64,000 bases of DNA from positions 800,001-864,000 of the forward strand of contig CBDCDC010000002.1 of NCBI GenBank assembly GCA_965215195.1, written 5' to 3'. Source of the DNA: Candidatus Latescibacterota bacterium (GTDB taxonomy: Bacteria; Latescibacterota; UBA2968; UBA8231). Position 1 is the first letter of the stretch; every line of letters starts with the position of its first letter. Shown piece by piece: positions 12,066 to 23,832 of this stretch. The position numbers and the translations under genes were made by a program. The notes below the pieces were generated by a model. That model had not been told where the DNA came from, made no database searches, and saw only the letters and a list, made by a program, of their open reading frames with translations.

Positions 12066-12863
12066 TCAAAGTACATAGGCGAGACTGATTCCCACGAGGA
12101 GGGATGCGATGAGCTTGCCGCGATCGTGGCTGTGGAAATGGATCTCCGGTAACAGGTCGCTCAAGGCAATGCACAAGAACGCGCCCGCCGCAAAGGACAG
12201 CACATAGCCGATCACGGTCCCTTCTTCCGGGCCAAGCAATTCCACCCCCCCAAAGCTCGCCAGCGCCACGACCGGGCACAGCATGGCAAAGCCGACATTG
12301 GTCAATGTCCGGGCGCGCTGGCTGTGCCCGGCGTACTTCATCATGCTGACAATGGAGTACGCATCAAGCGGCTTGTGCAGCAGAATGACGAGGAATACCC
12401 CTAGGCCCGCCAAGGCGACTCCGTCTTCATACGGCGATTCCAACCTCATGCTGGTACCCAACGCGATCCCTTCGGTCGCGGTATGTACCCCTAGGCCGAG
12501 GGCCACGCCGAACAAACTCGGCGAATGGACGACACCGTGGTCGTCATACAGATCGCTCGCCTCGCGGCTGAAGTCGTGCTGGTGAAAGTGAAAGATATGC
12601 TGTAAGAGAATCATCAACACCATGCCTAACACCATCCATCCCACGGCTTTTTCTATGGCGCTAGGTCCAGGAATGTGATCGAGGCTATCGGGTAGCAGGT
12701 GAAACATGGCGATGCCGAGGATGAAGCCGGCTACGAGACTCATCACGACCTGAGTGCGCGTATGCGTCATGGTGCCCAAGGCCGCCAATTTGCCGCCGAG
12801 CAGGGAAGCGGCAAAGATGGCGGCTGAGTAGGCCGACAAAACCAGTAGAGCGTTTGCATCCAT
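12066..12863 (-). CDS. ZIP-family metal transporter, copy 1 (C-terminal tail shortened)
   Basis: HTATEGIALG, ILLHKPLD, SDLLPE, His-rich loop HFHQH. Confidence 0.9.
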   Translation of the reverse strand: MDANALLVLSAYSAAIFAASLLGGKLAALGTMTHTRTQVVMSLVAGFILGIAMFHLLPDSLDHIPGPSAIEKAVGWMVLGMVLMILLQHIFHFHQHDFSREASDLYDDHGVVHSPSLFGVALGLGVHTATEGIALGTSMRLESPYEDGVALAGLGVFLVILLHKPLDAYSIVSMMKYAGHSQRARTLTNVGFAMLCPVVALASFGGVELLGPEEGTVIGYVLSFAAGAFLCIALSDLLPEIHFHSHDRGKLIASLLVGISLAYVL

Positions 12864-12879
12864 GACGACTATACTTTGT

Positions 12880-13920
12880 TCATCCTATCCGCCAAACCGT
12901 CGCGCCACCCCGCGCGTCGAGCGCGGCAAGCGCGCGCCCGTCAGGCCGCCAGTACAATTCGGCCACTGCGTCCGCCACAACCGCGGCCCCTATCGGATCG
13001 CCTTCTCCATCTCGCTGAAGCGACCACACAACCACAGCACCATCGCGGCCTCCCGATGCCAAGCGCATCGCGCCGGGAGCGAAGGAAAGCGTCGTGACGG
13101 GTTGAACATGAAACTCTAGAACGCCGGGCCGCGTACCTTCGGGACCCCCTCTCTGGAAGCTCCAGACCGTCACCGCCTCCCCTCCGCCAGTGGCCAAAAG
13201 GGTGCCGGTGTCATCGAAAGCCAAGGCCGACGGCTTGGCAGGATATCCGGACATCATGGAGTCCTCCTGCGTGGAACGACGCCAGAAGTGTACCGAGTTG
13301 TCTTGGCTGCCGCAGGCCACGATATCCCTGTTCGGGCTCAGTGCCATCGACACCAAGGATCCCTGCCACTCCAGCTTCTGGCGAAGCTCGCCGGTGGGCG
13401 CGTCGAAGAACGTCACTCGACCGTAACAGGCCGTCGCCAGCTCCCCTACGCTCGACCAAGCGATCGCGCTGACGGTGCTGGGATGATCATCAGATCGCCA
13501 AACCTCCGCGCCGTCCGCGCCATACGCGCGAACCTGCCGGGAGCAGGAGGCCGCCAACCATTGGCCGTCCGGCGACCACGCCACGTTTTCTACCCAACCG
13601 CTTCCGACGTCGATAGCCCGGCTTACCTGACCTTCGGCGGCACTCCAGATTAAGACTCGGCTGTCCTGGCCGGCCGTAGCGAACGCGGTTCCGCTTGGGT
13701 GGATCGCCACCGCGAGCACACCACCTTCATGAACCCCGCGCCGCTCCCAGGCGGTCGCGCCAGACTTGCCGTCGAATGCGTAGACGCCACCCGCAGCATC
13801 ACCGACCATCAGCACCTCACCGCGTAGGCTCCAACCCCCGGCGATGGCGTAGTCGCCAACCGCCGCAGACCAGCCCCGGCGAAGATCGCCCCTCGGGCTA
13901 CCGACATTCAAATCAGACAT
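12880..13920 (-). CDS. WD40-repeat protein
   Basis: Repeated 'ATAGQD--V-IW', 'AWSPDG' and 'ASGGRDG-V-VW' units. Confidence 0.9.
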   Translation of the reverse strand: MSDLNVGSPRGDLRRGWSAAVGDYAIAGGWSLRGEVLMVGDAAGGVYAFDGKSGATAWERRGVHEGGVLAVAIHPSGTAFATAGQDSRVLIWSAAEGQVSRAIDVGSGWVENVAWSPDGQWLAASCSRQVRAYGADGAEVWRSDDHPSTVSAIAWSSVGELATACYGRVTFFDAPTGELRQKLEWQGSLVSMALSPNRDIVACGSQDNSVHFWRRSTQEDSMMSGYPAKPSALAFDDTGTLLATGGGEAVTVWSFQRGGPEGTRPGVLEFHVQPVTTLSFAPGAMRLASGGRDGAVVVWSLQRDGEGDPIGAAVVADAVAELYWRPDGRALAALDARGGATVWRIG

Positions 13921-15311
13921 GCTTCGAACTCCTGCCGCATGCTCTGCTCATCGAGGTTGCGGCCGATGAAGACGAGCTGATTGTGGCGGGGCGCGTCCCC
14001 CCATTCGCGATCCGGCTGGCCGTCAAAGAGCATGTGAACCCCCTGGAAGACGAAGCGATGCGACTCACCTGCGAGGCTGATGAAGCCCTTCATTCGGAAG
14101 ATGTCCACCCCGCGCTCACCAAGCAGTTTGCCAAGCCAAGCGTTGAGCCTGACGAGATCGACGTCGCCGTCCCTCTCGATCGCGATTGAGCCCACCTCGT
14201 CGTCGTGCTCGTGCTGTGCGACCCAGGTTCGCTCGACCTCGACGGGAACCACCGCTCCCTTGATGCGCAGGGCGCCGGTCTCTGTGGAGGCAAGATTGGA
14301 GCGCGGACTGTCTCCATCCGCGTTCGTCAGTTGGAGATCGAACTCCTCCGCGAGGTGCTGGGCGTAGAGGCCAACCCGCACCTGCGTATCGACCTCCAAG
14401 AAGAACGACTTGCGCCCTCGGGAATCGAGCCGGAGGTTCACATGCTTTCCGACCGGAATATCTTCCCCCGGGCGAATGAGCTCCGCAGGTTCGGCGTACC
14501 GCCGCACACACCACTCCGCACCCTCGCGGAGGGCAGCGTCATCTATGCCTTGGTCGGACACGACGACGAGCGACATCGCCGGGTCCGGTCCATCAGCGAG
14601 GCTGAGTTCGTAGCGGCCCATAGCGAGCGAATAGACTCCAGTCCATTCGAACGGATACTCCGGCTCGAGGAAGGTGGGGCGACGCTCGAGCGCCTGGTCC
14701 AAGTTGAAGGCACCGAGGTTGAGTACTGTGTCGACGGAGACATGCGCCCGCTCGCTGCGCACGACTCGCGCCATTCGGTTCATGTCTCGGAGCCGAGCTT
14801 CGAGCCTGTCGAGCACCTCGCCATTGACGAGGTCCGTCTTGTTGAGCACGAGAACATCTGCGAACGCGATTTGCTCCGTGCTTTCGTCGCTTCGGCCGAG
14901 CTGCTGCTCAATGTGGGCTGCATCGACGAGCGTGACGATTCCGTCAAGCGAGAACTCCGCGCGAATCTCGTCGTCCATGAAGAAGGTCTGAGCGACCGGA
15001 CCGGGATCGGCGAGCCCTGTGGTCTCCACCAACACATAGTCGAACTTGTCGCGGCGCTTCATGAGATTGCCGAGCACGCGAATCAGGTCTCCGCGCACCG
15101 TGCAGCAGATGCAGCCGTTCGACATCTCAAAGATCTCCTCGTCAGCGTTGATGACGAGCGCCTGATCGATGCCGACTTCCCCATACTCGTTTTCAATCAC
15201 GGCAATGCGCTTGCCGTGCTCCTCACTCAAAATCCGGTTGAGTAGGGTCGTCTTGCCAGAGCCGAGGAAGCCGGTGAGGATGGTAACAGGTACTTTTCGC
15301 GGCGTATTCAT
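13908..15311 (-). CDS. COG0523 (CobW/YciC/ZigA) G3E GTPase metallochaperone
   Basis: TGFLGSGKTT, NGCICC (CxCC), ETTGLADP, NKTD, C-terminal CobW_C 'FRMKG...FQGVH...LVFIG'. Confidence 0.95.
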   Translation of the reverse strand: MNTPRKVPVTILTGFLGSGKTTLLNRILSEEHGKRIAVIENEYGEVGIDQALVINADEEIFEMSNGCICCTVRGDLIRVLGNLMKRRDKFDYVLVETTGLADPGPVAQTFFMDDEIRAEFSLDGIVTLVDAAHIEQQLGRSDESTEQIAFADVLVLNKTDLVNGEVLDRLEARLRDMNRMARVVRSERAHVSVDTVLNLGAFNLDQALERRPTFLEPEYPFEWTGVYSLAMGRYELSLADGPDPAMSLVVVSDQGIDDAALREGAEWCVRRYAEPAELIRPGEDIPVGKHVNLRLDSRGRKSFFLEVDTQVRVGLYAQHLAEEFDLQLTNADGDSPRSNLASTETGALRIKGAVVPVEVERTWVAQHEHDDEVGSIAIERDGDVDLVRLNAWLGKLLGERGVDIFRMKGFISLAGESHRFVFQGVHMLFDGQPDREWGDAPRHNQLVFIGRNLDEQSMRQEFEACLI

Positions 15312-15338: not shown

Positions 15339-16574
15339 TTAAGACTTGCCACTGCTGAGGTCCCGATCGCCCATGCTGGACCGGAAGCGAAGATTGAGTA
15401 GCATATCCTCGTAGCCACGGCGCAGGGCACCGGCGCGGAAGCGCCAGACGATCAGGGCGATGAGGAGCAAAGCACTGCCCCATTGCAGGAGTTGAACGGC
15501 TGGCGTATGGGAGGCGTCGAGGTTCACGGAAATTGCCAGACCAACGGCTAGCAGCAGCGCATCGATGGCGATGCCGAGAACGACTGTAACCGCGATGACT
15601 GCGGCGACGTAGATGGATGCAAAGCGGGAGCCGAAGCGGCTGACGATGATCGCGATGGTGCCCGTGTTGGTAGCCGGTCCAGTCATCAGAAAAATCAGTG
15701 CCGCGCCGGGGCTGACTCCATTGGCAACTAGCGCGGCGGCGATTGGAGTACTGGCGGATGCGCAGATGTAGAGAGGGATGCCGATCAGCACCATGACCGG
15801 ATAGGACAGATAGCGGGCGTACTCGTGCGCCATCAGATCGCTCGGAAGCGCCAGAAAGAGCACGCCGCCCAGCACGACCCCCACCAGCAGCGCAAAGAGA
15901 ATGTCGTCGGCTATCTCAATGAAGCCATGGCGAAAGACGTGCCTGACCAGCTTTTTGAAGTCAAGCTCTTGATTGTCGGTGGGGACTTCTGCGGTGGATT
16001 GTCGGCCAGCGATTCCCTTCAACCAGTTGACCAGTTGCGAAGGGCTGACATAGCAATCATCCCTGTCGGCTATGAGGGATTGGTGATGATCGTGGCTACA
16101 TTCATGGTAGTGATCGTGGTCGCTTGCCTCGGCTTCATCTCGGTCGTCTCTTATCAGTCTGATGCAAAAAAGCCCGGCGACGACCGCGGTGATGAAGCTG
16201 ATGACGGGCCGCACAATGGCAACGATGGGTCCGAAAAAGGCGTTGGTGACTAAGATCGAATCCGCACCCGTCTCCGGCGCGGTGATCAAGAAAGACATGC
16301 AGGACGAACGGGACGCGCCCTTATTGCGCATCTCAGCGACTACCGGCACGACCGAGCAACTGCACAGGGGCACGGGTACGCCAATAGCCGAACTCATGGT
16401 CACGGATTTTAGGCTGTCGTCGCGGAGCCAGCGGAGAATGGCCTGACGGGAGATAAACACATGAATCAGGCCGGAGAGGAACAGCCCCAGCAGCAGCATG
16501 GGGGCTAGCAGTAAAAAGGAAGCCCAGAGGAAGGCAAAAAAACTGGTTAATATCCCAAGAAAATCAAAGGTCAT
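15339..16574 (-). CDS. Metal permease (ArsP_1/SO_0444-like), copy 1
   Basis: PLCSCSVVP, YICASASTP, GPATN, His-rich central loop. Confidence 0.9.
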   Translation of the reverse strand: MTFDFLGILTSFFAFLWASFLLLAPMLLLGLFLSGLIHVFISRQAILRWLRDDSLKSVTMSSAIGVPVPLCSCSVVPVVAEMRNKGASRSSCMSFLITAPETGADSILVTNAFFGPIVAIVRPVISFITAVVAGLFCIRLIRDDRDEAEASDHDHYHECSHDHHQSLIADRDDCYVSPSQLVNWLKGIAGRQSTAEVPTDNQELDFKKLVRHVFRHGFIEIADDILFALLVGVVLGGVLFLALPSDLMAHEYARYLSYPVMVLIGIPLYICASASTPIAAALVANGVSPGAALIFLMTGPATNTGTIAIIVSRFGSRFASIYVAAVIAVTVVLGIAIDALLLAVGLAISVNLDASHTPAVQLLQWGSALLLIALIVWRFRAGALRRGYEDMLLNLRFRSSMGDRDLSSGKS

Positions 16575-16617
16575 TCTGTGCAATCCCATCGTCCGGTGAG
16601 TAAATTCAGACGAATTC

Positions 16618-18855
16618 TTAGAAGAATATCTTGTGCAGCAGGCGCAGATTGCGGCCTGGCTCGGGCAGGATCTCTTTGACGCGGTTGAGGTGATTGCGGT
16701 ACACCGCGTCGGTAGCGTTTTCCAAGGTCAAGGAGAAGGTGTGCAGACGTCCCCCCCACTGCGCGTAGTACTGGCTCGAAAGATCCAGCACTGCGTAGCC
16801 TTCCGTAGGCTCTTCAAACTCACCGACCTGGTCCTGTTCCGCAGCCAAGCGCACGTCAATGGTCGCACTCAGCGCCTCGGTGGGTTCGCAGGTCAGGCTC
16901 AGGTGCCCTTGCAGGGGCGGCAGACGCGGCAGGGGTTCGCGGTTGCGGTCAGCGAGGTGGCCGCGCACATAGCTGAGGGAGCCAGCCGTTTTCCAGTGCT
17001 TTGCCACGTGCCAATCGAAGGTGGCTTCGGCACCGTGCATGAGGACGCGCTCCCCCACAGTCTGGTAGAGAAAGAGATCGGCGCGGCGCAAGCTGCGCTC
17101 GCCGCTGTTCTTGGGGAAAATGTACCCGTCAATGGCGTTGCGGAAGATGGCCAAGTGCAGATGGCCTTCTTCGCGGTGATAGTCGGCAAACAGCTCCAAC
17201 CCCAAGCCGCGCTCGCTGTCGAGAGCACCATTGCCCACCTCGTACGCATAGGCGGCCAAATGCGGTCCTTCGGAGAACAGCTCTTCAATGCCGGGAGCGC
17301 GAAAAGTGCGCATCAAGGTCGTGCCCAACGTCAAAGTCGAACTGGCGCGATAGTGATTGGACAAACCGGCAGACATCCCGGCAAAATCGCGCGTCTGGAT
17401 GCTGCCGACCCGGCGCGAATAGCGCTCCTCGCGTGGCTCGACGCGGCGGGCGTCAACGCGCAGGGCCGCATTGGCTGCCCAAGGCCCATGCTGCCACTCT
17501 TGGTACGCGAACAAAGCACCGGCATATTCCTCGGCCGGCGGCGTATAGTTGAGCCCGGCCGCGGCATAGTTGCGGTACTCGTACCACAGACCAACCGCGC
17601 CGTTTTCAAAAGGCCCCATGCGATCCAAGTGAGCTAGCGCACCGCTGTTGTGCGTGAGCACACCGAACTCCAGCCCCAAGGCACCGCTAGCTTCGAATTC
17701 GCCGTGCTGATAGCGCGAAAACGAGTGGTGCAATTCTAGGCGCTGGAGCCAGTCCGGCCCGGTGACAATTTCGCCACGCCCTTCGAGGTGCTGGCGCTGG
17801 AGATCAATGGATATGCCGTGCGGGTGGCCGCCCTGCGGATCGGGGGGAATGCCGTAGTCGGAGTTGTACAAGCTACCGGACGCGCCCACGTGCCCCCAAG
17901 GACGCACCAGACTCAGGCCGACCGAAGCATTGCCGGTGCGGATATCCGTATTGGCGAGTACCCCACGCGGCGTGGCAATATCGTCGGCATTGCGCAGACT
18001 GCTGTCGAAGCGCAGGGCCAGTGGGCCGAGCGGCTGTTCAAGAGTCAGGCCGCCGGACAAACCGCGATTGACGCTCTCCCCCTGATACGTCACAGATCCC
18101 CCCAAGTCGTCGGGCCGCTCGGAGGGCACGTACCCGCGCACCACGTTGACGACCCCGGCTAAAGCATTAGAGCCGTAGAGCAAGGTGTGGGGGCCGCGCA
18201 CGACCTCGATGCGCTCGGTGGTCATCGGCTCGATAGCCACGGCATGGTCTGAGGAAGTGCCGGACAAATCGCCGGTGCGCTCGCCGTCTTCGACCATCAG
18301 CAAGCGGTCGCCACCCAGCCCGCGCAGCACCGGACGCGCCGGCGCGGGCCCCATCGAACGCTGAGCAATGCCCGGCTCGTAGGCGATGGTCTCGGCGATG
18401 GTGCGGCTCAAGTTCTGCCGCAGCTTGCTACCGCTGAAGACAATTTCGGGTGCTTGGAGTGGGGAAACAGGGCTCCTGTGTTCGCCTTCGATGAGAATCG
18501 CCTCTACGTGCAGGGACTCGTGGCCGATAACCAGATCGACGTGGGTGGTATCCCCGGCCACGACCTCGACCTCAAAGCGGGCCTCGCGGTAGCCGACGTG
18601 TAGGCTTTGCAAGACGTGCGCACCAGAGGGTACGTTGGCGAAAAAGAAGTACCCCTCGGCATCGCTCATCCGCGCCCGTTCGAGCCCCTCGATGACGACG
18701 GTAGTCCAAGCGACGGATTGGCCGCTTTCGGCGTCGATCACATGACCGGCTAGCGAACCGGTCTGGTCGCCCCAAGCGGAACTTACTGCTAGGCCGAGTA
18801 CAGGGGCGAACCTCAAAAGCAGCCGGGACCAGATTCTACGGCTTGCGTTTTTCAT
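16618..18855 (-). CDS. TonB-dependent receptor (ZnuD-like) with an N-terminal CarboxypepD-like domain
   Basis: Signal peptide from MKNAS; plug 'RPVLRG', DHAV, 'RIEVVRGP-TLLYG'; ELFSEGPH; PGRN...F terminus. Confidence 0.92.
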   Translation of the reverse strand: MKNASRRIWSRLLLRFAPVLGLAVSSAWGDQTGSLAGHVIDAESGQSVAWTTVVIEGLERARMSDAEGYFFFANVPSGAHVLQSLHVGYREARFEVEVVAGDTTHVDLVIGHESLHVEAILIEGEHRSPVSPLQAPEIVFSGSKLRQNLSRTIAETIAYEPGIAQRSMGPAPARPVLRGLGGDRLLMVEDGERTGDLSGTSSDHAVAIEPMTTERIEVVRGPHTLLYGSNALAGVVNVVRGYVPSERPDDLGGSVTYQGESVNRGLSGGLTLEQPLGPLALRFDSSLRNADDIATPRGVLANTDIRTGNASVGLSLVRPWGHVGASGSLYNSDYGIPPDPQGGHPHGISIDLQRQHLEGRGEIVTGPDWLQRLELHHSFSRYQHGEFEASGALGLEFGVLTHNSGALAHLDRMGPFENGAVGLWYEYRNYAAAGLNYTPPAEEYAGALFAYQEWQHGPWAANAALRVDARRVEPREERYSRRVGSIQTRDFAGMSAGLSNHYRASSTLTLGTTLMRTFRAPGIEELFSEGPHLAAYAYEVGNGALDSERGLGLELFADYHREEGHLHLAIFRNAIDGYIFPKNSGERSLRRADLFLYQTVGERVLMHGAEATFDWHVAKHWKTAGSLSYVRGHLADRNREPLPRLPPLQGHLSLTCEPTEALSATIDVRLAAEQDQVGEFEEPTEGYAVLDLSSQYYAQWGGRLHTFSLTLENATDAVYRNHLNRVKEILPEPGRNLRLLHKIFF

Positions 18856-18958: not shown

Positions 18959-19465
18959 TTACCCCTCCTCGTCGTGCTCGTCGTGTTCCTCACCGGGTCC
19001 GTCCTCGCTGACGTGAATCTCAATCTCCGGCGAGACGAAATCGGCGTGGCCTTCGTGGTTGACCTTGAGGCGGATGGTAGTCGCGCCTTCCTCTAAGCCG
19101 AGGATGTGAAAAGCCCAAGCCCCGTCCTCGGCGTGATGCTCAACTTCGGCGATGCTCTCGTCGGCAATTTCCCAACCGAGGGAGAAATCATCGGCTTCGT
19201 CTGGGGTGAAGAGATCGCCGTCTTCGGCGATAAAGCGCACGGAAAGCAGCGCGGTTTCCTTGCCGTGACCGACTTCAATTTCGCCGGTCACTTGGCCGCT
19301 TTCAACCCGGACGATTTCAGCGCCGCTATCGCGCACGATCAGACCGACAGCCTCGGCGTGTTCATCATGGTGGTCAGGATCGACGGGATTATCGTCGTCG
19401 CCGCAGCTAGCCATAAAGAGGGCTAAGGCGAAAATGCTCAACGCAGACATACTTCTTTTCAGCAT
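18959..19465 (-). CDS. His/acidic-rich lipoprotein, copy A (putative metal binding)
   Basis: Lipobox FMASC; DHHDEHAEA, HEGHADF, EEHDEH. Confidence 0.85.
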   Translation of the reverse strand: MLKRSMSALSIFALALFMASCGDDDNPVDPDHHDEHAEAVGLIVRDSGAEIVRVESGQVTGEIEVGHGKETALLSVRFIAEDGDLFTPDEADDFSLGWEIADESIAEVEHHAEDGAWAFHILGLEEGATTIRLKVNHEGHADFVSPEIEIHVSEDGPGEEHDEHDEEG

Positions 19466-19579
19466 GGTGCTAGTCTCCAATGGTTTGACCGTCCACGCGC
19501 ATTTCACCTAAGGCGTTGTGCGCAGAACGGGAATTTAATGGTACGCGAATTGGATCTGGAGAGAGGCACCCACGCACTA

Positions 19580-19733: not shown

Positions 19734-19758
19734 AAGGCAGTTTACCAGCGTGGATGCA

Positions 19759-20073
19759 CTAGCACCGGGGCGGGCCGCGGTTGAGATGGGTAAAGCGAGG
19801 GGTAAAAAGGAGTAACGGTACTGTGCGCAGAGTGGACGGATTTGGCTCTGAGGCATTCAGCACCACGAGCGCGAGCGCCAAGCCCCAAAAAAGGAGCGAT
19901 AGGCTGCTCTGCAACAGGCAAGCTGGGCAGTTCTCAGGCTCGACGTGGCTCTCGTGGCAAAGCTGGTGGCCGAAGGGTAAGCCGCAGCTTACAGCCGCAA
20001 AGAGCACGGTCAGCACCAGCAGAGCCAGCGAGGACGCCGAGCCTATCGAGATGTCCGTTTTGCGCGTTAGCAT
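19759..20073 (-). CDS. DUF2946/CruR-like small membrane protein with His/Cys cluster and C-terminal RGPP, copy A
   Basis: Hydrophobic N-terminus, GHQLCHESH---ENCPAC, second hydrophobic stretch, HLNRGPPRC-stop. Confidence 0.75.
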   Translation of the reverse strand: MLTRKTDISIGSASSLALLVLTVLFAAVSCGLPFGHQLCHESHVEPENCPACLLQSSLSLLFWGLALALVVLNASEPNPSTLRTVPLLLFTPRFTHLNRGPPRC

Positions 20074-20159
20074 GGTCTTTGATTTTAGTGGTTTGGCAAA
20101 AAAACGCAACTTCAACCCCAGCAGGCTTGCCCTTTTTAAGCACTGTCCACTCAACGGGT

Positions 20160-20280: not shown

Positions 20281-20308
20281 GGCTATCCAATTGACCTTGA
20301 CATAAATG

Positions 20309-20339
20309 CGCGGGACCGGAGCTTGCGTCCGGTCCCGCG
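20309..20339. terminator. 12-bp perfect hairpin downstream of lipoprotein copy B
   Basis: CGCGGGACCGGA-N7-TCCGGTCCCGCG; U-tract is weak. Confidence 0.55.
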
Positions 20340-20368
20340 TCGCTTTTACCTAAGTGGGTCTAACCGCT

Positions 20369-20875
20369 TTACCCTTCTTCTTCGTGCTCGTCGTGTTCCT
20401 CACCGGGTCCGTCCTCGCTGACGTGAATCTCAATCTCCGGCGAGACGAAATCGGCGTGGCCTTCGTGGTCGATCTTGAGGCGGATGGTAGTCGCGCCTTC
20501 CTCTAAGCCGAGGATGTGAAAAGCCCAAGCCCCGTCCTCGGCGTGATGCTCAACTTCGGCGATGCTCTCGTCGGCAATTTCCCAACCGAGGGAGAAATCA
20601 TCGGCTTCGTCTGGGGTAAAGAGATCGCCGTCTTCGGCGATAAAGCGCACGGAAAGCAGCGCGGTTTCCTTGCCGTGACCGACTTCAATCTCGCCGGTCA
20701 CTTGGCCGCTTTCAACGCGGACGATTTCAGCGCCGCTATCGCGCACGATCAGGCCGACGGCCTCGGCGTGTTCATCATGGTGGTCAGGATCGACGGGATT
20801 ATCGTCGTCGCCGCAGCTAGCAACAAAGAGGGCCAAGGCGAAAATGCTCAACGCAGACATACTTCTTTTAAGCAT
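20369..20875 (-). CDS. His/acidic-rich lipoprotein, copy B
   Basis: Lipobox FVASC; differs from copy A at about 4 of 168 residues. Confidence 0.85.
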   Translation of the reverse strand: MLKRSMSALSIFALALFVASCGDDDNPVDPDHHDEHAEAVGLIVRDSGAEIVRVESGQVTGEIEVGHGKETALLSVRFIAEDGDLFTPDEADDFSLGWEIADESIAEVEHHAEDGAWAFHILGLEEGATTIRLKIDHEGHADFVSPEIEIHVSEDGPGEEHDEHEEEG

Positions 20876-20988
20876 GGTGCTAGTCTCCAATGGTTTGACC
20901 GTCCACGCGCACTGCGTTCACTAGGCGCACAGAACGGAGATTTAGTGGTACGAGAAATACGGATCTGGAGAGAGGCACCCACGCACTA

Positions 20989-21118
20989 AGAGGCGGTCTG
21001 AAAACTCGCGTCGGGCCGGGCCGTTAGGGCCTAGGAGGGAGGGCGTCTCGCCCTCCACCATGCGAGGGCAAGATGCTCTCGCACCCAAGCTATGGGCCGC
21101 AGTTTTCAGAACGCTTCT
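20989..21118 (-). promoter_or_regulatory. Multi-hairpin structured leader, copy B
   Basis: Same hairpins as copy A; the closing stem is re-formed with different sequence (TCTGAAAACT/AGTTTTCAGA). Confidence 0.6.
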
Positions 21119-21141
21119 AAGGCAGTTTCAGCGTGGATGCA

Positions 21142-21456
21142 CTAACACCGGGGCGGGCCGCGGTTGAGATGGGTAAAGCGAGGGGTGAAAAGAGGCAGGG
21201 GTACTGTGCGCGGGGCGGACGGGCCTAGCTCGGGGGCGTTTAGTGCCACGAGCACGAGCGGCAGGCCCCAAAAAAGGAGCGATAGGCCGCTCTGCAACAA
21301 GTAAGCCGGGCAATTCTCCGGCTCAACGAGGCTCTCGTGGAAAAGCTGGTGGCCGAAGGGCAAGCCGCATAAGACAGCCGCCAAGAGCGCGGTCAGCACC
21401 AGCAGGCTTAGCGAGTGCGCCGAATGCGTCGAGAGGTCCGTTTTGCGCGTTAGCAT
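21142..21456 (-). CDS. DUF2946/CruR-like RGPP protein, copy B (three putative metal ligands lost)
   Basis: GHQLFHESL---ENCPAY; identical FTPRFTHLNRGPPRC tail. Confidence 0.72.
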   Translation of the reverse strand: MLTRKTDLSTHSAHSLSLLVLTALLAAVLCGLPFGHQLFHESLVEPENCPAYLLQSGLSLLFWGLPLVLVALNAPELGPSAPRTVPLPLFTPRFTHLNRGPPRC

Positions 21457-21559: not shown

Positions 21560-22795
21560 ATGACCTTTGAATTTCTTGGGATATTGACCCGTTTTTTCGC
21601 CTTCCTCTGGTCATCCTTCCTGTTGTTAGCACCCATGCTTCTGCTGGGGCTGTTCCTTTCCGGCCTGATCCACGTATTCATCTCCCGCCAAGCCATACTC
21701 CGCTGGCTCCGCGACGACAGTCTGAAGTCCGTAACCACGAGCTCGGCCATTGGCGTACCCGTGCCCCTGTGCAGTTGCTCGGTCGTGCCGGTAGTCGCTG
21801 AGATGCGCAATAAGGGCGCGTCCCGTGCGTCCTGCATGTCTTTCTTGATCACCGCGCCGGAGACGGGTGCGGACTCGATCTTAGTCACTAATGCCTTTTT
21901 CGGACCCATCGTTGCCATTGTGCGGCCCGTCATCAGCTTTATCACCGCGGTCGTCGCCGGGGTCTTTTGCATTGGCCTCATAAGAGACGACCGCGACGAA
22001 GCCAAGGCGAGCGACCCCAACCAGTGCCACAACTGTGCCCACGACCACGGCTGGCACCAATCTCTCGTAGCCGACAGGGATGATTGCTACGTCAGCCCCG
22101 CTCAACTCAAGGTATTACTGGTCAACTGGATTGCTCGCAGACGATCCACCGGCGATGTACCCACAGACGCTCAGGGTTTGGATTTCGAGAAGCTGGTCAA
22201 GCACGTCTTGCGCTATGGCTTCGTCGAGATAGCCGACGACATTCTCTTTGCGCTGCTGGTGGGCGTCGCGCTGGGCGGGGTGCTCTTTCTGGCCATTCCG
22301 AGCGATTTGATGGCGCACGAGTATGCCCGCTATCTGTCCTATCCGGTCATGGTGCTGATCGGCATTCCCCTCTACATCTGCGCATCCGCCAGCACCCCGA
22401 TCGCCGCCGCACTCGTTGCCAAGGGAGTCAGCCCGGGTGCGGCCCTGATCTTTCTGATGACCGGACCGGCCACCAACACGGGCACCATCGCGATCATCGT
22501 CAGCCAGTTCGGCTCCCGCTTCGCATCCATCTACGTCGCCGCAGTCATCGCGGTTACGCTCGTCCTCGGCATCGCGATCGACGCGCTGCTGCTGGCCGCT
22601 GGGCTGACGATTTCCGCGGACCTCAACGCCTCCCATGCGCCGGCCATTCAGTTCCTGCAATGGGGCAGCGCTTTTGCCCTCATCGCCCTGATCGTCTGGC
22701 GGTTCCGGGCCGGTGCCCTGCGCAGCGGGTACGAGGATATGCTGCTCAATATCCGTCCCGGGTCCAGCACCAGCGACCGGTGTGGGGACACCTGA
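21560..22795 (+). CDS. Metal permease (ArsP_1/SO_0444-like), copy 2
   Basis: Highly similar to 15339-16574 with the same motifs. Confidence 0.9.
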   Translation: MTFEFLGILTRFFAFLWSSFLLLAPMLLLGLFLSGLIHVFISRQAILRWLRDDSLKSVTTSSAIGVPVPLCSCSVVPVVAEMRNKGASRASCMSFLITAPETGADSILVTNAFFGPIVAIVRPVISFITAVVAGVFCIGLIRDDRDEAKASDPNQCHNCAHDHGWHQSLVADRDDCYVSPAQLKVLLVNWIARRRSTGDVPTDAQGLDFEKLVKHVLRYGFVEIADDILFALLVGVALGGVLFLAIPSDLMAHEYARYLSYPVMVLIGIPLYICASASTPIAAALVAKGVSPGAALIFLMTGPATNTGTIAIIVSQFGSRFASIYVAAVIAVTLVLGIAIDALLLAAGLTISADLNASHAPAIQFLQWGSAFALIALIVWRFRAGALRSGYEDMLLNIRPGSSTSDRCGDT

Positions 22796-22998
22796 GCGGC
22801 AGTCGTTTCTTGCGGGCATCCTCTTCCCACCGCGCTAATGGACCTGCCGCAGGTATTCGCCTTTAGGCGTCAGCAGGGTGGTGCCGGCGAGCACCTTGGG
22901 CACTTGATTCATTATCTCCTCACGACTCTGTTTGACGACAGCGTACCCTTTTCGTTGAAGGGAACTGCGCTCGCAGATAGTTTCCGGTCCTAGCCATC

Positions 22999-23832
22999 AT
23001 GGACTCAAATTCTCTACTGATCTTGTTGGCCTACTCAGCCGCCATCTTTGCCGCTTCCTTGCTCGGCGGGAAACTGTCGGCCTTGGGCACCATGACGCAT
23101 ACGCGCACCCAAGTCGTGATGAGTCTGGTGGCCGGCTTCATCCTCGGCATCGCCATGTTTCACATGCTACCCCACAGCCTCGAGCGCATTCCCGGGCCTG
23201 ACGTGGTAGAAAAAGCCGTGGGCTGGATGGTGTGCGGCATGGTCCTGATGATTTTTTTGCTACGCATCTTTCACTTTCATCAGCACGACTTCAGCCGCGA
23301 GGCGAGCGATCTGTACGATCGGCACGGCCACGGTGGCGTCCATGCGCGGAGTTTGTTCGGCGTTGCCCTCGGCCTAGGGGTGCATACCGCGACCGAAGGG
23401 ATCGCGCTGGGAACCAGCATGAGGTTGGGGCCGCCGCACGAAAGCGATGCCGCGTTGGCGGGCCTAGGGGTATTCCTCGCCATTGTGCTGCACAAGCCGC
23501 TAGACGCGTACTCCATTATCGGCATGATGCAGTCGGCCGGTCACAGCCGGCGCGCCCGCACGGCGGTCAATGTCGGATTTGCCATGCTGGGCCCTGTGGT
23601 GGCACTGGCGAGTTTCTGGGGCGTGGGATTGCTCGGCCCGCAAGAAGGGGCGGTGGTCGGCTACGCGCTGGCCTTTGCAGCGGGTGCGTTCCTGTGCATT
23701 GCCTTGAGCGACCTGCTGCCGGAGATCCATTTCCACAGCCACGATCGCGGCAAGCTCATCGCATCCCTCCTCGTGGGAATCGGTCTGGCCTATGCCCTGT
23801 GCGTTGAATCCAGCACCATCCATGGGCATTAG
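22999..23832 (+). CDS. ZIP-family metal transporter, copy 2
   Basis: Highly similar to 12066-12863 with the same ZIP motifs. Confidence 0.9.
   Translation: MDSNSLLILLAYSAAIFAASLLGGKLSALGTMTHTRTQVVMSLVAGFILGIAMFHMLPHSLERIPGPDVVEKAVGWMVCGMVLMIFLLRIFHFHQHDFSREASDLYDRHGHGGVHARSLFGVALGLGVHTATEGIALGTSMRLGPPHESDAALAGLGVFLAIVLHKPLDAYSIIGMMQSAGHSRRARTAVNVGFAMLGPVVALASFWGVGLLGPQEGAVVGYALAFAAGAFLCIALSDLLPEIHFHSHDRGKLIASLLVGIGLAYALCVESSTIHGH

Follow-up and report, generated by a model that had tools for sequence, protein, structure and literature searches.

Tandem RGPP-ending small proteins as candidate zinc-type leader peptides of a lipoprotein and TonB-receptor operon in a Latescibacterota bacterium

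We discuss here two small open reading frames (ORFs) in a window of 64,000 nucleotides (nt) from the genome of a Candidatus Latescibacterota bacterium (assembly GCA_965215195.1, contig CBDCDC010000002.1, positions 800,001 to 864,000; the genome is G000 in our survey). Each ORF encodes a 104-aa protein that ends in RGPPRC, and each is followed by a gene for a His-rich lipoprotein, in one case with a TonB-dependent receptor and several transport genes behind it. We think it probable that the two ORFs are regulatory leader peptides of the kind represented by CruR, CutF and the RAPP/RGPP arrest peptides, here of a zinc type and serving as an arrest-based switch. The case is built on the conservation of the peptides, the geometry of their 3' ends, the pairing of the leader RNA and the gene context, all of which were computed.

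The leader ORFs

The two ORFs and their main parts are as follows.

19759-20073, minus strand: leader ORF 1, 104 aa, ligand-rich type (C39, H43, C52), heading the operon of lipoprotein 1 and the receptor
19768-19779, minus strand: codons for the RGPP of leader 1 (R99-P102), where arrest is predicted, with two codons left before the stop
19918-19968, minus strand: putative metal-binding loop of leader 1, H36-C52, with H36, H40 and C49 invariant in the family
21142-21456, minus strand: leader ORF 2, 104 aa, ligand-poor type (F39, L43, Y52), with the same RGPPRC end

In the ORF translation leader 1 runs from an ATG at 20073-20071 to a TAG at 19761-19759. An earlier note on this DNA, made from the sequence alone, had described it as a protein of 104 aa with two hydrophobic segments, a His/Cys cluster and RGPP two codons before the stop, and that description is accurate: RGPP occupies residues 99-102 and is followed by R103, C104 and the stop. 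The RGPP codons of leader 2 are at 21151-21162 (minus strand). The two proteins are 80% identical, and the C-terminal stretch that the earlier note gave as identical in both is so, but it comprises the final 16 residues and not 15.

The loop of leader 1 reads H36-QL-C39-H40-ES-H43-VEPEN-C49-PA-C52. Leader 2 has F39, L43 and Y52, and of the loop ligands only H36, H40 and C49 are present in both copies. The six-residue Cys/His cluster proposed earlier is therefore a good description of leader 1, but as a conserved sensor it has to be reduced to these three residues, the only ones of the six that are conserved.

By hydropathy the hydrophobic segments of leader 1 are at about residues 15-30 and 56-75, with 15-residue windows above 1.6 starting at residues 7-21 and 56-61. 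The N-terminal tail has 2 K/R, the loop (residues 29-52) has no K/R, 3 D/E, 3 His and 4 Cys, and the C-terminal tail has 4 K/R. The orientation of membrane proteins is governed by the positive-inside rule, and because of this distribution of K/R the rule predicts a topology with the N-terminus in, the loop out and the C-terminus in. An AlphaFold2 model made from a 24-sequence alignment has a helix at 10-41, a turn, a second helix at 50-74 and an unstructured tail at 75-104. It places H36 and H40 at the end of helix 1 and C49 and C52 at the start of helix 2, around the interhelix turn. The N-terminal helix may, as modelled, be a signal anchor and not a cleaved signal.

The leader family

The phylum was surveyed by a profile search of 168 genomes, this genome included. 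The leader ORF was found in 47 of them, all belonging to one family, in which 46 of 75 genomes (G000 not counted) have it, as against none of the 92 elsewhere. In a word-indexed search there were 90 proteins at 60-93% identity, and the few that are named are from Gemmatimonadota metagenome-assembled genomes (MAGs). Among 1.84 billion representative proteins searched with a profile there were only 50 matches at E<=0.001, which are 84-139 aa long except for three fragments (47, 81 and 83 aa) and one protein of 229 aa. The 40 that were retrieved have a common plan of a first transmembrane segment, P-x-L-H-x(1-3)-H, E-x3-C-P, a second transmembrane segment and then an end motif, [RK]-[AGPS]-P-P, at 1-8 residues from the C-terminus; one protein, P0113, is without the end motif. 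A clade with N-K-A-P-P consists of Calditrichota MAGs (loci L060-L065) and one record labelled Deltaproteobacteria, and one of the Calditrichota loci, L064, has two tandem leaders, with KAPP and then RAPP. The earlier suggestion that this is a system of a phylum distant from that of CruR thus holds, with named homologues in Gemmatimonadota and relatives in Calditrichota. NCBIfam has no match for the leader, and a PDB sequence search with the leader profile gave 0 matches.

Conservation is concentrated in a few residues. In 24 diverse sequences (27-92% identity) the invariant columns are M1, P33, H36, H40, C49, R99, P101 and P102, so that H36, H40 and C49 are the sole invariant residues of ligand type. 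With 34 sequences at 14-37% identity the first His, the Cys and PP are still invariant, and the spacing from the Cys to the arrest motif is almost free of gaps. In other genera of the family the peptide is 27-40% identical, mostly of 102-104 aa, and has RAPP where the genus of our strain has RGPP, with ends such as ...NRAPPRT, ...RAPPHS and ...RAPPRS. The length range is 99-114 aa among 20 diverse members, 17 of which have 102-104 aa.

Comparison of 26 congeneric coding sequences shows that it is the peptide that is being kept. There are 39 of the 104 positions with a single amino acid, and 32 of these use at least two codons; the fixed positions with variable codons include N98, R99, G100, P101, P102 and C104, and R99, G100, P101 and P102 each have 2 synonymous codons with the amino acid constant. 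Elsewhere the peptide changes quickly, the mean differences from leader 1 within the genus being 18.7 non-synonymous and 10.8 synonymous codons. Fixed residues with varied codons in an otherwise fast-changing peptide point to selection on a few peptide residues.

Copies of the ligand-rich sub-type (C39, H43, C52) and of the ligand-poor one (F, L, Y) are repeatedly found together on a contig, and in all 10 loci where both could be placed the ligand-poor leader is the first. In some ligand-rich homologues the loop is expanded to HESHGSHGSHGSH. In the window the whole unit of promoter-like element, leader, intergenic region, lipoprotein gene and hairpin is duplicated, with 88% DNA identity between the copies.

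The leader RNA

Directly after the leader stop codon there is a hairpin, here called P1, and its 3' flank carries a tract complementary to the Shine-Dalgarno (SD) region of the lipoprotein gene, here called the anti-SD.

19748-19757, minus strand: P1 5' arm, GCAUCCACGC, starting 1 nt after the leader 1 stop codon
19577-19741, minus strand: insert of about 165 nt in the P1 loop of leader 1, resembling a miniature inverted-repeat transposable element (MITE)
19566-19575, minus strand: P1 3' arm, GCGUGGGUGC
19556-19565, minus strand: anti-SD tract, CUCUCUCCAG, directly 3' of P1
19463-19478, minus strand: initiation region of lipoprotein 1, with SD GGAGA at 19474-19478, spacer CUAGCACC at 19466-19473 and AUG at 19463-19465
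20965-21140, minus strand: RNA elements of leader 2, with P1 5' arm at 21131-21140, P1 3' arm at 20975-20984 and anti-SD at 20965-20974
about 20985-21125, minus strand: MITE-like insert of leader 2

Within the anti-SD tract 7 nt (UCUCCAG) are complementary to UUGGAGA of the lipoprotein 1 ribosome-binding site. In addition ACUAGCACC (19466-19474) is complementary to the last codons and stop of leader 1, GGUGCUAGU (19758-19766). The intergenic folds of the window are more stable than those of shuffled sequences (z -4.97 and -3.85, with 0 of 100 shuffles as stable), and in the minimum free energy (MFE) fold of either window leader the SD and the spacer are both paired.

The same arrangement is found in 42 of 47 loci: P1 is of 8-12 bp and starts 0-1 nt past the stop codon (in one locus 1 nt before its end), and the 10 nt after P1 hold 5-9 nt complementary to the SD region. 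Taken as a joint criterion (a P1 of 8 bp or more that starts no further than 2 nt from the stop, with 5 nt or more of anti-SD among the 10 nt behind it), this occurs in 5.5% of dinucleotide shuffles on average, and the observed P1 score was reached by 1 and 2 of 200 shuffles for the two window copies. The 47 loci are related and are not independent trials, but they span several genera with different sequences.

There is covariation in these elements. At P1 position 7 there are 31 loci with A-U and 10 with G-C, and at position 9 there are 30 with G-C and 6 with A-U, both changes being fully compensatory, while position 4 is variously U-G, U-A, C-G and G-U. The anti-SD and SD vary together, with UCUCCA(G) facing (U)UGGAGA in one form and GUUCUCC facing GGAGAAC in the other. 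The length of the P1 loop ranges from 3 to 172 nt, so that it is the helix that is kept. Pairing of the leader end with the spacer is of 7-9 bp in 28 of the 29 loci scored from our strain's own genus, and L027, which is outside the genus, has 7 bp with a compensatory change of U-A to C-G.

In the free mRNA the mean unpaired probability from SD to AUG over the 47 loci is 0.17, and when the nucleotides covered by a ribosome are masked it becomes 0.40 for an arrested ribosome and 0.30 for a terminating one. On this modelling, an opening of the initiation region that is operated by arrest, as in SecM and CutF, is plausible.

An intrinsic terminator was considered as the read-out and rejected. P1 has no U-run, the terminator-like sites number 4 where 3.3 are expected from shuffles, and these sites are found only after lipoprotein 2 and inside the coding region of leader 2. 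With regard to known RNA elements, Rfam gave no known riboswitch or leader; the sole match, to tpke11, was below threshold (26.4 vs 43 bits, 20281-20358), and it lies over the terminator-like hairpin after lipoprotein 2, being probably a chance similarity to a GC hairpin.

Both leader RNAs of the window have an insert of this kind, of 130-165 nt, structured, with inverted ends and TTAG flanks. The 165-nt insert of leader 1 is missing from most relatives, and some relatives have different inserts at the same TTAG site or in the loop of a second hairpin, P2. A 19-nt motif from the insert ends occurs 87 times in G000 (43 forward and 44 reverse, with up to 3 mismatches) and 0 times in a reversed control, often as facing pairs 110-150 nt apart, as for a MITE-like family.

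The operon and its expression

The other features of the region are as follows.

12066-12863, minus strand: ZIP transporter
12880-13920, minus strand: WD40 protein
13908-15311, minus strand: COG0523 GTPase with a CxCC motif
15339-16589, minus strand: ArsP_1/SO_0444-type permease (NCBIfam equivalog)
16618-18855, minus strand: TonB-dependent receptor with CarboxypepD_reg N-domain, best NCBIfam match ZnuD
18959-19465, minus strand: lipoprotein 1, 168 aa, with His-rich N- and C-termini
20082-20109, minus strand: promoter-like element TTGCGT-16 nt-TAAAAT, conserved, ending 8 nt before the leader ATG
20309-20339, minus strand: 12-bp terminator-like hairpin after lipoprotein 2
20369-20888, minus strand: SD and gene of lipoprotein 2, with SD at 20884-20888, AUG at 20873-20875 and stop at 20369

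Read along the minus strand the order is leader 2, lipoprotein 2, hairpin, leader 1, lipoprotein 1, receptor, ArsP_1 permease, COG0523, WD40 and ZIP. The intergenic regions are of 293 nt after leader 1 and 266 nt after leader 2, and of 106-296 nt across loci. The hairpin after lipoprotein 1 that corresponds to the one after lipoprotein 2 carries two mismatches, which would permit read-through into the receptor gene.

Pfam and NCBIfam scans bear out what was said earlier of the downstream genes, namely that they are for a lipoprotein, a ZnuD-like TonB receptor, a COG0523 protein and a ZIP protein. The receptor has 175 bits with ZnuD, far below the cut-off of 950, and haem and copper receptor models match as well. 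The ZIP proteins match ZupT weakly. A second ArsP_1 and ZIP pair lies divergently at 21560-23832 (plus strand), so that paralogous pairs flank the leader region on both sides. It is odd to find a permease named for efflux in what appears to be an uptake cluster, and the name may give the wrong direction of transport. At 467 aa the COG0523 protein is long, with an insert of about 160 aa between the GTPase and CobW_C domains, and its gene overlaps that for the WD40 beta-propeller protein by 13 nt, the latter being an unusual partner for a metallochaperone.

The succession of leader, lipoprotein and receptor genes is well conserved, being present for 44 of the 51 leader copies found. Three of the other seven have a lipoprotein gene with a GTG start before the receptor gene, one has a frameshifted lipoprotein gene and three are at a contig end. 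A homologous lipoprotein follows the leader in 5 of 6 Calditrichota loci (39% identity, E 2e-29), there as two tandem domains in one gene rather than as two separate genes, and the same CarboxypepD_reg-type receptor follows in all four Calditrichota loci that reach that far. The window lipoprotein begins and ends with His-rich sequence (DPDHHDEH... and ...EEHDEHDEEG) and had no match in Pfam or NCBIfam and 0 matches in a PDB sequence search. It is an uncharacterised partner of the receptor, probably metal-binding, and is conserved with it across two phyla.

The leader ORF is not preceded by an SD, and the position of the promoter-like element implies, as far as sequence can tell, an mRNA that is leaderless or nearly so. 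Four metatranscriptome runs, all from one marine study, each have a contig from a relative with 90-95% identity. In three of the four the contig extends from the receptor gene through the lipoprotein gene and a short intergenic region into the leader, and in the fourth it starts in the lipoprotein gene. In the RNA contigs of this relative 8 other letters replace the 165-nt insert. The contigs end at window positions 20030-20061, which is 12-43 nt inside the 5' end of the leader, one of them running into adapter. This gives a weak hint that the region is transcribed, with transcripts starting near the leader ATG, which would agree with the promoter-like element and the missing SD.

Relationship to known arrest peptides

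The earlier note had likened the leader to CruR and its family, DUF2946 (Pfam PF11162). CruR (Bp2923 of Bordetella pertussis) has an export signal, a CXXC motif and RAPP three residues before its end, and is copper-responsive and Rho-dependent, with an intergenic region of 162 nt. DUF2946 proteins come first in TonB-receptor operons, with long intergenic regions, and have 45 residues between the Cys motif and RAPP, conserved within 1-2 (PMC9426467). The window leaders share with CruR the first position in a TonB-receptor operon, an N-terminal hydrophobic segment of export type, a metal motif that includes Cys, R-A/G-P-P at 2-3 residues before the C-terminus and a long intergenic region, and the expected logic, in which metal relieves the arrest and shuts off the uptake system, is the same. 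Leader 1 has C49-P-A-C52, and the gap from C52 to R99 is 46 residues; leader 2 has Y52, and in the family only C49 is invariant. The window leaders differ from CruR in having H-x3-H-x8-C as conserved ligands and not CXXC, a second transmembrane segment and, in this genus, RGPP. They differ too in their distant phylum, in the His-rich lipoprotein gene that comes first downstream, in the zinc-type context and in the stop-adjacent hairpin and anti-SD, which suggest translational control instead of, or beside, Rho.

Formal membership of DUF2946 did not stand. Leader 1 has 19.7 bits with PF11162 (E 0.0015), short of the gathering threshold of 23.7, with residues 40-102 aligned to positions 55-117 of 117, and leader 2 has no match to it. 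At E<=1, 10 of 24 diverse members match, the best at 8.9e-5, but at E<=0.1 there is only 1 of 38 distant representatives, and none of the 168 phylum genomes has a protein above the cut-off. The score of one Calditrichota member is 22.7 bits. Where there is a partial match, it is always to the C-terminal half and extends to the last position of the profile. Since the family is below the Pfam threshold and yet has the architecture, motif spacing and operon position of DUF2946, we see it as a remote relative or close analogue, and not as a demonstrated member.

In the case of CutF of Rhodobacter capsulatus, metal is sensed in the periplasm during co-translational export, and stalling leads to the melting of a stem-loop that covers the SD of the following gene. 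There copper induces the stall and so switches on a detoxifying oxidase, and the motif is PPP and EF-P (elongation factor P) dependent (PMC9973294; bioRxiv 10.1101/2025.02.05.636593). The 5,334 'CutF-like' proteins, mostly of Pseudomonadota and Bacteroidota, were defined by a length of <150 aa, PP within 15 C-terminal residues, a same-strand neighbour at <1000 nt and an N-terminal signal (PMC9973294). Leader 1 comes under this operational definition for length (104 aa), PP (101-102) and distance to the neighbour (293 nt, or 266 nt for leader 2). The read-out that we propose, by a stem-loop over the SD, is also that of CutF: such a stem-loop is predicted here, with the SD paired in both MFE folds and an anti-SD in 42 of 47 loci. 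The expected logic differs, as an uptake system would be switched on by lack of metal and not a detoxification system by copper, and so do the motif (RGPP, reported to be EF-P-refractory, against PPP) and the intergenic region (106-296 nt against a short one).

ApdA, ApdP, ApcA and SecM are reportedly arrest peptides of the RAPP/RGPP class, those shown experimentally being monitors of Sec/YidC, and RAPP/RGPP peptides of Streptomyces lividans are said to sit upstream of metal-related genes. Like ApdA, ApdP and SecM, the window leaders are small proteins of a secreted or membrane type with an R-[AG]-P-P core close to the C-terminus, encoded ahead of the gene that is, or here would be, regulated, but in the window the downstream genes are for a lipoprotein, TonB receptor, permease, COG0523 and ZIP proteins and not for Sec or YidC. 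A recent study reports that translation is robustly arrested by RGPP and by RAPP behind several different N-terminal sequences and that this arrest resists EF-P, that the in vitro arrest of CruR places its two Pro codons in the P and A sites, and that no tetrapeptide is more strongly excluded from bacterial proteomes than RGPP. The study includes a survey in which RAPP/RGPP small ORFs lie upstream of TonB- and Cu-related genes across phyla, some with conserved Cys/His (PMC12992588). The word 'zinc' is absent from the main texts of PMC9426467, PMC9973294 and PMC12992588, and 'Gemmatimonad' from PMC9973294; the family may be present in supplementary lists. Our literature search gave no paper linking arrest peptides with zinc, COG0523 or Zur among the matches listed.

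Proposed mechanism and alternatives

The arrest itself, the metal, the direction of response and the read-out are inferred, and we propose that they fit together as follows. The leader would be translated from a short-leader or leaderless mRNA and inserted into the inner membrane as a two-helix hairpin, with the N-terminus in, the acidic His/Cys loop out and the basic tail in. Two codons short of the stop the ribosome would arrest, its P site occupied by P101 and its A site by P102, and this geometry appears to be conserved, because two codons follow PP in nearly all copies. A ribosome has a footprint that extends about 15-16 nt 3' of the first nucleotide of the P-site codon. An arrested ribosome would thus cover R103, C104 and the stop, with its leading edge exactly at the foot of P1. 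The anti-SD on the 3' flank of P1 would pair with the ribosome-binding site of the lipoprotein gene, and in this genus the leader end would also pair with the spacer. During arrest the initiation region would be partly freed and/or Rho kept off the C-rich tract behind P1, with the result that lipoprotein is made and, from copy 1, the operon of receptor, permease, COG0523 and ZIP genes is expressed. Metal, most likely Zn(II), would bind H36, H40 and C49 at the hairpin turn, and folding or insertion would then pull on the chain and release the arrest, upon which the leader RNA would refold and expression would fall. This direction, with arrest in the absence of metal and release by metal, is proposed because the genes are for an uptake system and because of the CruR precedent. 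The second transmembrane segment ends about 28 residues before the arrest point, and it is known from force-profile studies that membrane insertion pulls on arrested chains at such distances.

Some of our findings weigh against this interpretation. Whether the mRNA is free or carries an arrested or a terminating ribosome, the masking model keeps the SD core paired to the anti-SD, and since it is never freed the thermodynamic switch is not a clean one. The pairing of leader end and spacer is of only 3-5 bp in the other P1 loci outside the genus. A consensus promoter scan did not call the TTGCGT-16-TAAAAT element, and the RNA data are contigs only, from one study and from a relative; they show no transcript ends and may include DNA carry-over. 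The confidence of the AlphaFold2 model is low to moderate (pLDDT 66, pTM 0.33).

There are three alternatives that concern how the leaders work. A leader that arrests in the same way could be read out by Rho-dependent transcription attenuation as in CruR, with release of the arrest letting Rho terminate before or within the lipoprotein gene, and this could also be combined with SD masking; we see it as a real possibility but not the likely one. The intergenic region is C-rich in all 47 loci (mean C 0.32 vs G 0.25), the stretch from anti-SD to SD has C 0.30 and G 0.19, and the best 60-nt window averages C 23 and G 10. G000 has a Rho gene, CruR works in this way with its 162-nt intergenic region, and an SD core that is not freed by the arrested ribosome also fits Rho better. 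However the tract is predicted to be largely structured, by the P2 hairpin, and the anti-SD, conserved beside P1 and covarying with the SD flank, argues for translational control. We rate SD unmasking somewhat above Rho control, and both may act.

It is improbable, in our view, that the ORFs encode stable small inner-membrane proteins that act in trans as an anchor or chaperone, with R[AG]PP as a motif for structure or interaction. It is true that the two hydrophobic helices and the His/Cys loop are maintained along the whole protein, that the gene accompanies the lipoprotein-receptor pair in every case and that completed chains would sit in the membrane. But outside the motifs the protein evolves fast (the 18.7 to 10.8 excess of non-synonymous differences given above), R[AG]PP is fixed at two codons before a stop that abuts a conserved hairpin and anti-SD, and RGPP is strongly avoided in ordinary proteins (PMC12992588). 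Further, in L049, a locus discussed below, the ORF has decayed while the lipoprotein, receptor and leader RNA elements are intact. Least probable of all, and very much so, is a secretion or insertion monitor of the SecM, MifM, ApdA and ApdP type that reports Sec/YidC capacity and not metal. The motif is of RAPP type, there is a transmembrane segment about 28-48 residues before the arrest point, and membrane insertion could release such arrests (PMC9973294; bioRxiv 10.1101/2025.02.05.636593), but the downstream genes are for metal uptake and not sec or yidC, and the invariant residues accompanying the arrest motif include two His and one Cys.

The arrest leader with an RNA read-out is therefore the interpretation that we retain, and there is a fuller version of it that we put forward as a conjecture, rather unlikely to hold in every part. 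It combines a cross-membrane Zn(II) switch, tandem leaders with two thresholds and a role as sole regulator of zinc uptake in genomes without Fur. As the hairpin is inserted, periplasmic Zn(II) would clamp H36/H40 in the last part of helix 1 to C49 where helix 2 begins, and the clamp would give the pulling force that releases the EF-P-refractory RGPP arrest about 50 residues downstream. The ligand-poor leader (H, H, C) would control lipoprotein alone and the ligand-rich leader the receptor-chaperone-importer operon, and genomes of this lineage that are without any Fur-family gene would rely on the leader as their only regulator of zinc uptake.

The metal that is sensed

If the peptide is a metal sensor at all, then the sequence data make zinc the probable metal. 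In the window the context is that of a ZnuD-like receptor, a COG0523 protein and two ZIP genes. Locus L049 (G107:C1:2836499-2843561), from a different genus within the leader-bearing family, encodes a nearly identical lipoprotein and receptor, and behind them lies a ZigA equivalog (629.6 bits, cut-off 600). In L063, from Calditrichota, the leader is followed by an unannotated ORF of 443 aa and then by ZnuA (193.6 bits) and an ABC-3 permease, and this, together with the His-rich expansions of the loop, also speaks for zinc. The earlier suggestion of a metal different from that of CruR agrees with this gene context, which is of zinc and not copper type.

The alternative is that the leader senses copper (or cobalt or nickel) and that the module is for copper-type acquisition or handling like CruR-BfrG, and we would be surprised, though not greatly, if this proved correct. 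His2Cys sites bind several metals, and the window COG0523 protein is below every equivalog cut-off (YjiA, CobW and ZigA in NCBIfam). The two ArsP_1 permeases, at 329 and 327 bits, are above the cut-off (300) of the SO_0444 'Cu/Zn efflux' equivalog, and the TonB-copper model is among those that match the receptor (83.6 bits). All characterised relatives, namely CruR (PMC9426467) and CutF (PMC9973294), respond to copper, and for clusters with His only Ozturk et al. propose nickel or cobalt (PMC9973294). On the other hand the cluster genes scanned include none of the families (PepSY_TM, PCuAC, ScoC, YcnI and CopC) that Roy et al. give as copper partners (PMC9426467). The cluster has COG0523 and ZIP genes, with the ZigA equivalog and ZnuA/ABC-3 in relatives, a Fur-family gene and an operator-like palindrome precede the homologous module in L049, and the loop expansion to HESHGSHGSHGSH is a His-rich tract more typical of zinc or nickel.

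Relation to Fur-family control

It had been suggested in the earlier note that the leader might be present in place of a Zur-type repressor. No match to PF01475, the Fur family, was found at E<=0.001 in G000 (6.13 Mb, 2 contigs, 95% complete), although the same search found one in 13 of 14 control genomes; its absence would leave G000 without Fur, Zur and PerR. A Fur-family gene is present in 86 of the 168 phylum genomes, with 23 of 75 in the leader-bearing family and 63 of 92 in the rest. In the strain's own genus it is present in 11 of 30: nine genomes have both leader and Fur-family gene, 16 (and G000) have the leader only, two have the Fur-family gene only and three, which are incomplete, have neither. 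The genomes are related and not independent, and we give these counts without statistics. In the five genomes with both on a single contig the distance between them is 7-28 kb, and in four closed genomes it is about 20 kb.

L049 is instructive here. Its positions 20-1210 hold a Fur-family gene and then a perfect 7-2-7 palindrome (799-814) inside a promoter-like TTGACT-17-TATCGT. Its leader has decayed, with only the last 21 codons left and the stop lost, but P1, anti-SD and SD are intact. To judge by sequence it seems to be a naturally occurring locus with a repressor in control and a dead leader next to it. A Zur box at leader promoters in general was considered and rejected. The palindrome has 0 occurrences in the window at up to 3 mismatches (1.2 expected by chance), an exact match is absent from 58 of 59 loci, with none within 2 mismatches, and L049 is the sole locus that has it.

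The genes of the module are of the same kind as those of a Zur regulon (ZnuD, COG0523, ZnuABC) and are likewise expected to be on in zinc limitation, but Zur is a transcriptional repressor that acts in trans, unlike the leader. Leader and Fur-family control coexist in some genomes, as the nine congeners with both show, and general replacement of Zur is thus not sustained. For G000, with no Fur-family gene found, and given the decayed leader of L049, the suggestion keeps its force, and the leader may be the only such control there.

Significance

CruR (PMC9426467), CutF and the CutF-like proteins (PMC9973294) and a survey of RAPP/RGPP ORFs (PMC12992588) are already in print. What appears from the sequences to be new is a family not assigned in Pfam, with H-x3-H-x8-C ligands, a second transmembrane segment and a zinc-type context, a stop-adjacent hairpin and anti-SD conserved over genera, and a tandem pair with different ligand sets. 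A host genome with no detectable Fur-family gene is also new.

The family is clean test material, having eight invariant residues, a fixed two-codon distance from arrest site to stop, a hairpin and anti-SD at the ribosome edge, natural paired variants of the ligands and, in L049, a decayed leader in an otherwise intact locus. It also points to an uncharacterised His-rich lipoprotein that partners the receptor. To our knowledge metal-sensing arrest peptides have been experimentally established for copper only (CruR and CutF). If our interpretation is correct, then a zinc-linked family would show that metal sensing by the nascent chain is a general regulatory solution, and it would suggest that a device of this type is able to accompany the classical Zur repressor or to replace it.

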